This document shows positions 57,498 to 63,763 of a DNA stretch of 64,000 bases, one piece after another. Within the stretch, counting starts at the first letter, position 1. Each line of letters begins with the position of its first letter. This DNA is from an uncultured delta proteobacterium. Its GTDB lineage: Bacteria > Desulfobacterota > Desulfobacteria > Desulfobacterales > B30-G6. The position numbers were made by a program, and so were the translations under genes. The stretch lies in the NCBI GenBank assembly GCA_963701385.1, contig CAVOZW010000007.1, positions 32,385 to 96,384 of the forward strand. Reading direction: 5' to 3'. Below the pieces are notes generated by a model. That model searched no databases and was not told the origin of the DNA. It was given only the letters and a program-made list of their open reading frames with translations.

Positions 57498-57914
57498 ATG
57501 GCGACTGCGAAGAAGAAAACGGCAGCAAAAAAAACTACTGCAAAGAAACCGGCGGCTAAAAAAACTGCCAAAAAAACTGCTGCAAAGAAACCGGCGGCTA
57601 AAAAAACAACTGCCAAAAAAACTGCTGCAAAGAAACCGGCGGTTAAAAAAACTGCCAAAAAAACTGCTGCAAAGAAACCGGCGGTTAAAAAAACTGCCAA
57701 AAAAACTGCTGCAAAGAAACCGGCGGCTAAAAAAACTGCCAAAAAAACTGCTGCAAAGAAAACGGCGGTTAAAAAAACAACTGCCAGAAAAACTGCTGCA
57801 AAGAAACCGGCGGCTAAAAAAACTGCCAAAAAAACTGCTGCAAAGAAAACAGCGGTTAAAAAAACAACTGCCAGAAAAACTGCTGCAAAGAAACCGGCGG
57901 CTAAAAAAAAGTAA
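57498..57914 (+). CDS. histone H1-like / AlgP-like lysine-alanine repeat nucleoid protein
   Basis: 138 aa made almost only of K, A, T and P ([15 protein letters not shown] repeats). AAGGGGGG SD. The antisense track ORF is its low-complexity mirror. Confidence 0.7.
57520..57911 (+). repeat. imperfect in-frame tandem repeats (~45 bp unit and shorter variants) encoding [15 protein letters not shown]
   Basis: aaaaaaactgccaaaaaaactgctgcaaagaaaccggcggytaaa is reiterated about 8 times, with occasional acaact/agaaaa variants. Confidence 0.85.
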
Positions 57915-61714: not shown

Positions 61715-62263
61715 TTAGGGGTCCTCTTGCTCTTTGATATAGATCAAAATATTCTCTTGCACTATATTTTTCATACCCGGTCGAGACACCTCATTCACTT
61801 TTACCAATTCAATATTCTTTATATTGTAATTCTGGCGAAGATGCTGGGAAAGTGATTTTATGATGTTTTTTTGGACATCGGCTGTATTTAGGTATGCCAT
61901 TTTTTTCGTGCTGGTAATATGTTCTGTGATTTCACAGACGTCTTCGTGATCTTCCGGGGTCACTTCCATTTGACTGGAGCGGGGGCTATCACCCCTGCCT
62001 GGGTAATCATGTTCAAAGAACTGCTCGCTGTTGAGGTGATCCATCGGCACGTTGAATCTCTCATCTGTCAGGGGTCGAATATCTTCTTCAGGTAAAGAAT
62101 TGCTTGGCTTTGACCCTTCAAAAGCATTCGCAGGATAGTATCCCCCGACCACATCCTTCACGTTTTTGATTGAAGCATCGTCGCGAGGGGTATTTTCCTT
62201 TTTCTGTGATATAAAAATATCCGCAATGTCCTCAAGCCCCCTGCCAAGACTCTTTTTTTCCAT
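61715..62263 (-). CDS. ParA-partner candidate: 182-aa protein with ParB-like N-terminal LGRGL peptide, acidic linker and C-terminal domain
   Basis: MEKKSLGRGLEDIADIF mimics the (K/R)GLGRGLDALL ParA-stimulating peptide of ParB proteins. It starts 14 nt downstream of the parA-like stop, with an AAGGA SD. Confidence 0.6.
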   Translation of the reverse strand: MEKKSLGRGLEDIADIFISQKKENTPRDDASIKNVKDVVGGYYPANAFEGSKPSNSLPEEDIRPLTDERFNVPMDHLNSEQFFEHDYPGRGDSPRSSQMEVTPEDHEDVCEITEHITSTKKMAYLNTADVQKNIIKSLSQHLRQNYNIKNIELVKVNEVSRPGMKNIVQENILIYIKEQEDP

Positions 62264-62277
62264 TTAGGATGTCCTTT

Positions 62278-63354
62278 TTACCCTACTTCCAGTACCGAAT
62301 TTTTTCCCCCAAAGACATTATCGATATATTTCGAGTTATTATGATCTTCGACCCACTCACCATCGACGACAAATCTGTATTGATAGGTGCCCGGCTTGAG
62401 TGCAATACGCTTCGTCCACGTACCATAATCATCCCGTTGCATAAGAAATTCATCGCCTGGGTTCCAATTATTGAAATTTCCTCCGATCTTTACGGAATTT
62501 GCTTGAGGATCATAATAGGTAAATCGTTTTTCAAAATCCGATTCTAAATGCATCGCTTCATCATCTTCGACGAACCACTTATGGTCCGTTCCTTCATCAT
62601 AAAGGACTTCCTCGGCAAGCATCATATAATCTTTGAATCCGCTGGCCTTTTTTGAATAATCCAGGATCGATTTTCCAAATCCAACGGCCTCCTTCAAGGT
62701 GACGTTGGATCGAATGACCGTTTCAAACATGGTGTCACTAAAATGCTTACGAATATTCTCCAATACTTCCCTTGAGATTCTTGTGCGCTTATCCACTAGC
62801 GTTCCAAAAACTTTTGTATGGATTTCATGCCCTGTTTTCTCTTTGATGGACGCTATGATCTGCATGAGTTTGCTGATTCCGTGCAAAGAAAACAAACTCA
62901 TCTCTATCGGTACGAATACTTCCGATGAAGCAATAAGCGCATTGAAGGTCAACAACCCAAGGCTCGGTGGACAGTCTATGATAATGATGTCATACAATGG
63001 ATGGACCCGCCCGATTGCTTGCTTTAAGCGGTTCTCTCTTCCCTTTACCATTGAAAGGTGGTGATCCAAGGTGCTGAGTGAAATATCTGCAGGCACAACA
63101 TCAAAGTTTTCTGTAACGTTTTCTGAGATATCTGCAAGCGATAGACCGTTGCCGTTGGAATGCTCCAGGATGTTAAAAACTGAATTCTCTTTATGGTTGG
63201 TATCAATATTTAGCCCCAATGCAACGTGACCTTGGGGATCCATATCAATCAGGAGCACTCTTTTCCCTAAGTGGGCAAGACAGGCGGACAGATTGATAGC
63301 GGTGGTCGTTTTACCACAGCCACCTTTTTGATTGGCAATCGAAATCGTTCTCAT
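62278..63354 (-). CDS. ParA/MinD-family ATPase fused to a C-terminal AMPK-beta/CBM48-type glycogen-binding domain
   Basis: Deviant Walker A IANQKGGCGKTTTAINL and Walker B LLIDMDPQG. The C-terminus FTYYDPQANSVKIGGNFNNWNPGDEFLMQRDDYGTWTKRIALKPGTYQYRFVVDGEWVEDHNN...GGKNSVLEV matches the AMPK-beta GBD pattern (GSFNNW...G.HQYKF.VDG.W..D). ATG 63354 sits behind GGAGG. Confidence 0.85.
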   Translation of the reverse strand: MRTISIANQKGGCGKTTTAINLSACLAHLGKRVLLIDMDPQGHVALGLNIDTNHKENSVFNILEHSNGNGLSLADISENVTENFDVVPADISLSTLDHHLSMVKGRENRLKQAIGRVHPLYDIIIIDCPPSLGLLTFNALIASSEVFVPIEMSLFSLHGISKLMQIIASIKEKTGHEIHTKVFGTLVDKRTRISREVLENIRKHFSDTMFETVIRSNVTLKEAVGFGKSILDYSKKASGFKDYMMLAEEVLYDEGTDHKWFVEDDEAMHLESDFEKRFTYYDPQANSVKIGGNFNNWNPGDEFLMQRDDYGTWTKRIALKPGTYQYRFVVDGEWVEDHNNSKYIDNVFGGKNSVLEVG

Positions 63355-63404
63355 TTCCTCCAATCCCCCTATTCCATGTGGTTCGAACCGTAACAACGAG
63401 CACA

Positions 63405-63467
63405 CATCTGAATTAGGATAGATGCCTTACGGTCGTTGCAAAGCACTGCCGCACGGTAGAACATTCC
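63405..63467 (+). repeat. 63-bp intergenic repeat, copy 2
   Basis: catctgaattaggatagatgccttacggtcgttgcaaagcactgccgcacggtagaacattcc. Lies between the terminator at 63598 and the parA-like start (63354). Confidence 0.85.
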
Positions 63468-63597
63468 TCAGCGCAAGCTGCGAAAAGTCTTCAAAAATCG
63501 GATGAAAAAAAGAATTGTTGTTCAGGGTTTCCCAGCAGCATTGGCGGGTGGCAAACGGATATAGAAAATGGATCATATTGACCCGCCCGAACATGCC

Positions 63598-63640
63598 AGA
63601 AAAAAACCTCCCAGGAGAATAGGATTCTCTCTGGGAGGTT
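63598..63640 (-). terminator. strong rho-independent terminator (16-bp stem with one bulge, plus a U-tract)
   Basis: On the minus strand: AACCTCCCAGAGAGAAT-CCT-ATTCTCCTGGGAGGTT followed by TTTTTCT (plus-strand A-run 63600-63606). Confidence 0.7.
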
Positions 63641-63727
63641 AGTATTGGAAATTTGAGAACCTCTTTGATCATGATGTTTTCACAGTTCAGACAACGTCAT
63701 GCTGAATACATAAAATGAGAAATAATC
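63598..63727 (-). ncRNA. candidate ~130-nt sRNA or attenuating leader upstream of the parA-like gene
   Basis: Bounded by the promoter at 63735-63763 and the terminator at 63598-63640. An upstream GAGGTT copy (RC of ~63657-63662) can pair with the AACCTC arm as an alternative (anti-terminator-like) helix. Confidence 0.35.
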
Positions 63728-63734
63728 GATATTT

Positions 63735-63763
63735 AATATACTATACTATATGTTGTATGTCAA
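63735..63763 (-). promoter_or_regulatory. near-consensus sigma70-type promoter (TTGACA-17 nt-TATATT) on the minus strand
   Basis: -35 is the RC of 63758-63763 (TTGACA). The spacer is 17 nt. -10 is the RC of 63735-63740 (TATATT). The sequence resembles the promoter at 57373. Confidence 0.5.

Follow-up and report, generated by a model that had tools for sequence, protein, structure and literature searches.

A conserved gene pair that may couple glycogen to the nucleoid

We analysed a 64,000-nucleotide stretch of DNA from an uncultured delta proteobacterium of the Desulfobacterales (contig CAVOZW010000007.1, positions 32,385 to 96,384; hereafter the window), and within it two adjacent genes. One encodes a 358-residue ParA-family ATPase that is fused to a C-terminal carbohydrate-binding module (CBM) of the AMPK-beta/CBM48 type, and the other a 182-residue partner protein that begins with a short basic peptide resembling the N-terminus of ParB. 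The domains of the fusion are readily identified, its catalytic residues are complete and conserved across phyla, the two genes are obligately paired, and no ParB or parS accompanies them in the window. We propose that the pair is a two-component ParA/activator module coupling alpha-glucan (glycogen) particles to the nucleoid, for positioning or for tethering, a proposal whose chances we judge to be evenly balanced.

The fusion contains a complete Soj-like ATPase core

The core of the fusion carries the deviant Walker A motif KGGCGKTT at residues 10-17, including the signature lysine K10 as well as K15, and the sequence DMDPQG at residues 37-42; the Walker A' residues D37 and D39 and the Walker B residue D127 were likewise located. 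Pfam assigned it to AAA_31 (E=2e-55, residues 1-178) and CbiA (E=3.6e-20), and a PHROG ParA-like profile matched with E=3.4e-59. When 71 fusions (35-82% identity) representing at least 11 phyla were aligned, K10, K15, T16, D37, D39 and D127 were each conserved in 100% of the sequences. When residues 1-268 were compared with PDB sequences, the best matches were the ParA 8RAY (E=4.5e-47) and the Soj proteins of T. thermophilus (1WCV/2BEK, E=2e-42) and H. pylori (6IUB, E=2e-33), while MinD and McdA matched far more poorly, at about 1e-12 to 1e-14 (E=8e-12 for McdA 6NOO). The ParA, RepA and MinD models of NCBIfam all scored below their equivalog cut-offs, indicating that the fusion is a member of the ParA family rather than an orthologue of any named protein.

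Residue R189 of B. subtilis Soj mediates non-specific DNA binding. Its equivalent in the fusion, R190, was present in 70 of the 71 sequences, the register being taken from the PDB sequence alignment of the core, and it is this arginine that argues for DNA binding by the ATPase. Given the invariant catalytic residues and the retained arginine, the fusion ATPase appears to be a catalytically complete, Soj-like and probably nucleoid-binding ParA. Fusion cores from different phyla were 40-52% identical to one another as compared to 35-43% identical to canonical ParA/Soj, which fits the view that they form a single orthologous group. Searches of defence (PADLOC) and phage (PHROG) libraries returned nothing for either member of the pair except generic ParA/P-loop matches of the ATPase; in the case of PADLOC this was a 32-residue P-loop match (E=3.6e-5).

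The C-terminal domain retains the AMPK-type glucan platform

A 26-residue linker connects the core to the C-terminal domain. Both AMPK1_CBM (residues 282-357, E=2.3e-12, 47.4 bits against a cut-off of 26.8) and CBM_48 (E=1.6e-6, 28.8 bits against a cut-off of 22.4) matched this domain in Pfam, and its best PDB sequence matches were the pullulanase CBM48 5OT1 (2e-8) and the AMPK beta2 and beta1 domains (1e-6 to 3e-5). An AlphaFold2 model of the domain reached a mean pLDDT of 89.8. Foldseek placed AMPK beta CBMs at the top of its matches to this model (among them the cyclodextrin-bound 1Z0M, 1Z0N, 4YEE and 4YEF), with TM scores of 0.86-0.88 on the target and an rmsd of 1.5-1.8 Å; the starch phosphatase SEX4 ranked after these, and CBM48-like domains of feruloyl esterases were also among the fold matches. 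Thus, the two features that the original prediction had ascribed to this protein, a complete deviant-Walker-A ParA/MinD core and a C-terminal domain of ~85 residues matching AMPK-beta/CBM48, were both borne out.

Alignment to AMPK equated W297 with the tryptophan of FNNW, R327 with the lysine of HQYKF, W334 with the tryptophan of DGQW, and N352 with the AMPK asparagine, where the numbering of the AMPK glucan-contact residues is in part our assumption. The putative glucan-contact residues of the fusion are accordingly W297, R327, W334, F348 and N352. Among the 71 fusions, W297 was conserved in 97%, lysine or arginine at position 327 in 96%, W334 in 95% and G349 in 94%; position 348 was aromatic, and position 352 was asparagine in 87% and aspartate in a further 10%. 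Position 327 is arginine in the fusion studied here and lysine in half of the family. Substitution of the first of these tryptophans in AMPK (beta1-W100A or beta2-W98A) abolishes glycogen binding (PMC11752127), and CBM48 proteins serve as starch-targeting modules in plants (PMC6243121). These comparisons indicate that the C-terminal domain is genuinely of the AMPK-beta type, with its predicted glucan-binding residues kept under purifying selection across phyla, and its identity suggests that it binds glucan. A generic Ig/E-set fold lacking sugar-binding residues is ruled out by the match to the AMPK fold together with the 87-97% conservation of these residues.

The partner resembles a grafted-peptide activator

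The partner consists of the N-terminal peptide MEKKSLGRGLEDIADIFIS, an acidic middle segment predicted to be disordered (residues 21-110, net charge -10, pI 4.5, pLDDT 32-37), and a C-terminal domain (CTD) of ~70 residues. No family matched it in Pfam, NCBIfam, PADLOC or PHROG, and its homologues fall into 62 clusters, none of which is named. Residues K4, L6, R8, G9, D12 and I13 were invariant among 49 homologues. Across the wider family the peptide keeps the core L-x-(D/E)-(I/V)-S-x-(F/Y)-F-(L/I)-S directly behind a basic residue; several phyla no longer have LGRGL in its literal form, which is replaced, for example, by IVKNLREISHFFLS in Auribacterota and by ERLAQISHHFLSD in Gammaproteobacteria. 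The ParB-like LGRGL peptide of the original prediction is therefore present, with K4, L6, R8 and G9 invariant among the 49 homologues, while its literal form is confined to part of the family.

A search with the 25-residue peptide gave no matches against the PDB (phmmer) or against plasmids (tblastn), the peptide being too short for such tools, and a profile of the full partner found no ParB in the PDB. Because of this shortness, the likeness to the LGRGL peptide of ParB rests on established knowledge and on published work (PMC7993993). Grafting a basic N-terminal peptide onto an interaction domain can produce an activator of ParA/MinD ATPases, and the N-terminal 20 residues of T. thermophilus Spo0J are sufficient for activation (PMC7993993). 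The partner shares with such ATPase-activating proteins a conserved basic N-terminal peptide encoded beside the ATPase, and an invariant basic peptide on a varying partner body fits the published principle (PMC7993993). By analogy, the partner may be expected to stimulate its cognate ATPase.

The CTD has a predicted beta-alpha-beta-beta pattern (a low-confidence prediction). An exhaustive profile search among 1.84 billion representatives recovered 79 clusters alone, in which the domain was always C-terminal and the proteins were no longer than 215 residues, and essentially all full-length members started with the peptide. These results indicate that the CTD is a domain private to the partner family. 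The CTD profile also gave weak similarities to uL24/L26 (E=0.0018) and, at E=0.022, to the RCK_C domain of KhtT, which were noted as leads and not accepted. Genes for a CdaA diadenylate cyclase and for a TrkA-type channel lie 4-7 kb upstream in the genome of the window (L081:1813-5328); their proximity, together with the likeness of the CTD to the c-di-AMP-binding RCK_C domain of KhtT, is probably a coincidence.

The gene pair is conserved in at least 11 phyla

Full-length homologues of the fusion formed more than 120 clusters. A scan of one genome per species yielded 506 relatives, of which the best 80 were used for comparison of loci; these came from Desulfobacterales, Nitrospirota, Acidobacteriota, Omnitrophota, Phycisphaerae, Auribacterota, Gemmatimonadota, Rokubacteria, Poribacteria, Margulisbacteria and Gammaproteobacteria (Chromatiaceae and Thiohalobacter). 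In all, the fusion occurs in no fewer than 11 phyla. The match extended through the CBM in 78 of the 80 loci. A gene bearing the peptide was found directly downstream of the fusion in 68 loci using a regular expression, and inspection added about 6, giving ~74 of 80, with gaps between the two genes mostly of -32 to about +30 nt. Pairing is far beyond chance, since the same arrangement recurs in ~74 of 80 loci across phyla, and a lack of conservation of the partner beside the fusion can be dismissed. Co-occurrence of the fusion with a peptide-bearing partner, which the original prediction had proposed to survey in Desulfobacterota, extends well beyond that phylum. Loci without a peptide-bearing gene were mostly cut by contig ends, L058 being a real exception. 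Flanking genes differed wholly between genomes, even between relatives 75-82% identical, while the pair stayed together.

The partner body beyond the peptide varies by lineage. A form of ~300 residues occurs in Nitrospirota, Omnitrophota, Auribacterota and others (L035-L048, L051, L055 and L073; e.g. L039:9109-10017 and L041:3187-4104). As a weak lead, supported by Pfam CbiA/MipZ matches (E=0.005-0.04) and an hhalign probability of 44%, this form resembles a ParA/MinD fold that begins downstream of the P-loop, and it may be a pseudo-ATPase activator. A module of ~215-220 residues forms the partner body in Acidobacteriota and Rokubacteria (L049, L052-L054, L056, L060, L062, L067 and L069) and a separate third gene in Omnitrophota (L041:4106-4786 and L073:4575-5237). 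No Pfam family matched this module; its best PDB match, again a weak lead, was the endonuclease NucS (2VLD, E=0.006), with D-x-D in place of the catalytic E-x-K. Partners in Phycisphaerae reach 480-520 residues. The acidic linker and separate C-terminal domain that had been predicted for the partner therefore hold for the 182-residue form, which is specific to its lineage within a modular family. In a sister clade the middle segment is instead a Cys-rich CxxC...C...C module, and it is absent from forms of 115-125 residues. The Cys-rich insert, seen in a 184-residue partner class (L008, L009, L012, L014-L019 and others) at residues ~40-95 as FSSxKLRDATCESC...KCKIF...C, is possibly zinc-binding, and it occupies the place of the acidic disordered segment in the clade of the window.

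A proposed model for nucleoid tethering of glycogen

The alpha-glucan is taken as the constant ligand because the ATPase, the CBM and the peptide are the only elements that are constant across phyla. We infer the glucan binding, DNA binding, ATPase stimulation and cellular role of the pair as follows. ParA/MinD ATPases form ATP sandwich dimers that bind a matrix, and the N-terminal region of a partner stimulates hydrolysis and release (PMC11407121, PMC7993993). Under such a scheme, ATP-bound Soj-like dimers of the fusion would bind the nucleoid non-specifically via a conserved basic surface that includes R190, and each dimer would present two CBM48 domains on flexible linkers, allowing multivalent binding to a glycogen particle. 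Particles would in this way stay attached to the nucleoid and distributed across it, escaping exclusion to the poles, and would be inherited with the chromosomes. The co-transcribed partner would act as the ATPase activator: its basic peptide (K4 and R8 in KKSLGRGLEDI) would dock on the ParA dimer and trigger ATP hydrolysis and DNA release, producing turnover either as a dynamic tether or as a diffusion-ratchet. Which of the two applies, directed motion or a dynamic tether, would depend on the location of the activator, and the disordered acidic middle and private CTD of the partner could serve in self-association or in a lineage-specific contact. On this model the pair probably functions in the anchoring or distribution of glycogen particles.

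Alternative explanations

Several observations weigh against a function in glycogen tethering. When 903 flanking ORFs from 80 loci were clustered and the loci were screened for motifs diagnostic of GlgA, GlgC, GlgP and GH13, a glg gene was found within 8 kb in just 2 of ~80 loci, which is about the chance rate and no enrichment. We consider this missing independent tie to glycogen metabolism to be the weakest point of the proposal; because the neighbourhoods show no glycogen link, it is from the domain that we infer glycogen as the cargo. Characterised ParA systems hold their cargo by the activator and not by the ATPase (PMC11407121, PMC7993993), and if one ATPase engages matrix and cargo alike, a tether is to be expected as opposed to a classical gradient-driven motor. 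Some CBM48 domains do not bind glucan, such that the fold alone is no guarantee (PMC6243121). The lineage-specific partner modules (the private CTD and the pseudo-ParA-like and NucS-like bodies) could be the real cargo binders, and the AlphaFold2 model of the partner, built with 49 homologues, was of low confidence (mean pLDDT 42). Finally, locus L058 has no partner, and locus L079 (8001-8966 and 8929-9900) encodes a 321-residue ParA with a core 51% identical but without the CBM, followed by a peptide-bearing (NRKLGRGLAEVS) partner of ~323 residues, indicating that the ParA/peptide pair can exist independently of the CBM. The tethering of a polyglucan granule, as originally suggested, thus kept its domain premises and its pairing, while the neighbourhoods lent it no glycogen link and the partner modules allow for other cargo.

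The principal alternative is that glycogen acts as a signal rather than a cargo: the CBM, in a role likened to that of the AMPK beta CBM, would couple ParA to the carbon-storage state, and the C-terminal module of the partner would bind the real cargo, be it a protein assembly or, in lineages with NucS-like or MerR-linked modules, DNA. It draws on the precedent that the activator carries the cargo in all characterised systems (PMC11407121, PMC7993993), on partner C-terminal modules that are lineage-specific yet conserved inside each lineage, on the AMPK sensor domains as the closest structural relatives of the CBM, and on the CBM-less L079, which keeps the same kind of partner. We nevertheless consider it unlikely, as the CBM is constant across phyla together with ATPase and peptide, whereas the module supposed to bind the cargo is entirely different from one lineage to the next; moreover, candidate cargo genes do not recur in the neighbourhoods, and the shortest partners (115-125 residues) are hardly more than a peptide and a CTD. 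Less probable still is that the CBM-like domain is a protein-protein module or binds a non-glucan ligand, for instance docking the partner or another polymer, with a cargo unrelated to glycogen. Many CBM48 domains of debranching enzymes are without demonstrated glucan binding (PMC6243121), CBM48-like domains of feruloyl esterases were among the fold matches, and glycogen genes are not associated with the loci; against these stand the AMPK-type glucan platform of two tryptophans, a lysine or arginine and an asparagine, which is 87-97% conserved across phyla, and the glucan-bound AMPK CBMs that top the fold matches.

It is very improbable that the fusion is an ordinary chromosome- or plasmid-partition ParA that segregates DNA with an unusual substitute for ParB. 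The core is closest to chromosomal Soj/ParA and keeps the DNA-binding arginine, the partner peptide resembles ParB N-termini, and genes of the MerR helix-turn-helix (HTH) type lie just upstream of the fusion in Nitrospirae and Gammaproteobacteria loci. The hallmarks of DNA partition, however, are missing. Matches to the parS consensus in the window numbered 2 at 3 mismatches against 1.98 expected, and the window contained no iterons or repeat arrays and no further ParA or ParB motif. An ORF with the ParB box GERRxRA occurred neither in the window nor in any of 82 loci, and Pfam and NCBIfam detected no HTH/CTPase ParB domain in the partner, for which Pfam returned no domain at all. Among 72,556 plasmids there was no ParA-CBM fusion: thousands of ParA matches were obtained, with the best alignments ending at residue ~251-263, and a query consisting of linker plus CBM retrieved eight records, none of the eight fused to ParA. 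The chromosomal contexts are housekeeping and variable. The lack of parS, of ParB in the 82 loci and of plasmid copies argues against a canonical chromosome or plasmid partition locus. The initial description of a locus without parS, HTH or plasmid/origin context is in agreement with parS matches at the chance level, the lack of a ParB motif and the housekeeping neighbours.

The nearest plasmid or chromid relative of the CBM is a stand-alone AMPK-type CBM protein of 99 residues (L083:2489-2788) on pNC201, a 1.2-Mb chromid of Pseudoalteromonas sp. NC201, and it belongs to the eight records retrieved with linker plus CBM. Its gene lies 9 nt upstream of a 659-residue MalQ-like ORF (L083:2797-4776) bearing RIDHVMGL, a signature that we take to mark 4-alpha-glucanotransferase; both ORFs are unannotated in the PLSDB gene table.

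Relationship to known positioning systems

Bacteria generally rely on ParA/MinD ATPases to place large objects in the cell, among them chromosomes and plasmids, division sites, flagella, carboxysomes and arrays of chemoreceptors. The pair shares with ParABS (chromosomal ParA/Soj with ParB/Spo0J) the deviant Walker A motif and signature lysine, an identity of 39% with both T. thermophilus Soj and the ParA 8RAY, the equivalent of the Soj DNA-binding arginine, and a partner that begins, as ParB does, with a peptide of the K/R-x-LGRGL type. It differs in that the partner is without the HTH/CTPase ParB domain, there is no parS, the ATPase bears a C-terminal CBM48 domain, and the fusion cores group apart from canonical ParA. 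McdA/McdB of carboxysomes likewise combines a nucleoid-binding ParA-type ATPase with a small, largely disordered partner that has a charged N-terminus, serves a non-DNA metabolic cargo, and includes in McdA a detectable relative of the fusion core. In that system, however, McdB and not the ATPase binds the cargo, which is a protein shell and not a polysaccharide. The fusion ATPase also retains the signature lysine that is absent from beta-cyanobacterial McdA. No homology of the partner to McdB was found in homologue searches, the exhaustive CTD profile search or family models.

PhaM tethers granules of polyhydroxybutyrate (PHB) to the nucleoid, such that they are shared between daughter cells, and is not an ATPase. 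The outcome proposed here, a storage granule on the nucleoid, is conceptually equal, although PhaM is unrelated in sequence and acts on another polymer. The AMPK beta CBM and the plant proteins PTST1-3, FLO6 and SEX4 have the same fold and glucan-binding residues and exemplify a non-catalytic module that brings an activity to glycogen or starch; here the protein is bacterial and the attached activity is a ParA ATPase. In PomXYZ, and in the general concept of ATPase-activating proteins, a ParA-like ATPase bound to DNA is activated by a short basic peptide at the N-terminus of a scaffold that is otherwise unrelated (PMC7993993). The cargo of PomXYZ is the division site, its scaffold proteins are different, and it has no CBM.

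The searchable full-text literature, which does not extend to subscription-only papers, contained no ParA-CBM48, ParA-AMPK-CBM or ParA-glycogen system, in keeping with the earlier statement that no system of this kind had been described. Neither carbohydrates nor storage granules figure among the cargos given in a 2024 review of the ParA/MinD family, from which the words glycogen, granule and carbohydrate are absent (PMC11407121). Homologues of the fusion are named in databases merely as 'AAA family ATPase' or 'chromosome partitioning protein'. What is new here is an ATPase-borne domain for ligand binding and a new activator family, set on the known ParA/activator positioning scheme. We tentatively suggest, at somewhat less than even probability, that this is the first ParA/MinD system with a storage polysaccharide as cargo and a cargo module borne by the ATPase, in which an ATP-driven nucleoid tether partitions glycogen in at least 11 phyla using activator scaffolds that differ by lineage, a pseudo-ParA and an inactivated NucS-like module among them.

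Such an architecture would surprise a specialist. The organisation and inheritance of bacterial glycogen are largely unexplained, and a dedicated ParA module would offer a molecular handle on both; if the proposal is true, it also implies a new family logic, with the cargo binder on the motor and the activator on a scaffold that can be exchanged. Comprising two genes and three separable domains, the system is small and directly testable: it predicts glucan binding via the two tryptophans, peptide-stimulated ATPase activity, and mislocalisation of granules upon deletion. Its spread in hard-to-culture anaerobes (Desulfobacterales, Nitrospirota, Omnitrophota, Acidobacteriota and Phycisphaerae) suggests that it helps to manage carbon storage in sediments and groundwater.

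Layout of the locus and neighbouring genes

Coordinates of the pair are collected in Table 1. Both genes are on the minus strand, a point on which the original prediction was silent; the 14-nt gap that it gave between the fusion stop and the downstream gene was confirmed. The fusion starts at an ATG (MRTISIANQKGGCGKTT); an alternative GTG start at 63405 would add 17 residues, and homologues are 357-358 residues long. The partner starts with MEKKSLGRGLEDIADIF, and 21 nt separate the end of its gene from the stop codon of an LppC/periplasmic-binding-protein gene that is transcribed convergently. Between the best promoter-like site and the fusion start codon is an untranslated leader of ~380 nt (63355-63763, minus strand), and no Rfam family matched the locus or this long leader.

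Table 1. Features of the ParA-CBM locus in window coordinates.
Feature	Position	Strand	Basis and remarks
ParA-CBM fusion gene	62278..63354	minus	358 aa, stop codon included; ORF with Pfam AAA_31 and AMPK1_CBM
ATPase core, aa 1-251	62602..63354	minus	PDB sequence matches and residue conservation
Acidic linker, aa 252-277	62524..62601	minus	Net charge -7; poorly conserved
AMPK-beta-type CBM48 domain, aa 278-358	62281..62523	minus	Pfam, PDB sequence matches, AlphaFold2 model, Foldseek
Intergenic spacer (operon junction), 14 nt	62264..62277	minus	Contains AAAGGA (Shine-Dalgarno-like); read from sequence
Partner gene	61715..62263	minus	182 aa, stop codon included; ORF
Partner N-terminal peptide, aa 1-20, MEKKSLGRGLEDIADIFISQ	62204..62263	minus	Putative ATPase-activating peptide; invariant residues
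Partner acidic middle, aa 21-110	61934..62203	minus	Variable; predicted disordered (pLDDT 32-37)
Partner conserved C-terminal domain, aa ~111-182	61718..61933	minus	Beta-alpha-beta-beta; alignments and predicted secondary structure
Candidate sigma-70-type promoter, TTGACA-17-TATATT (11/12)	63735..63763	minus	Consensus scan alone; ~380 nt 5' of the fusion ATG

The neighbours of the pair in the window are housekeeping genes (CNNM/CorC, Usp, fructose-bisphosphate aldolase, MazG, CvpA and PhoH). The gene of the CNNM/CBS/CorC type lies upstream of the fusion in this genome (L081:7064-8404), and one is found ~1.6-2.8 kb upstream of the fusion in three distant loci (L065, L071 and L072), which is more often than we would expect by chance. 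In Nitrospirae and Gammaproteobacteria, the MerR-family HTH gene (MerR_1, E=2.7e-15) is located 16-79 nt upstream of the fusion (L039:7468-7941, L042, L046, L047, L055 and L076-L078, e.g. L078:7383-7901); it is absent from the window. A conserved gene of ~228 residues, without a Pfam match, follows the partner in 17 Desulfobacterales loci (L008-L026, e.g. L014:5896-6582), and the clade of the window is without it. Two irregular copies of the fusion were noted: in L065 (8001-9095) it is broken between core and CBM, representing a pseudogene or a sequencing error, and the metagenome-assembled genome MFD09779.bin.1.88 has two copies, L014 and the N-terminally truncated L034. Elsewhere in the window, positions 57498-57914 on the plus strand encode a 138-residue protein made up almost entirely of AKKT/AAKKP repeats, which resembles a histone H1-like or Lys/Ala-rich nucleoid protein; the ORF on the complementary strand is a mirror artefact.

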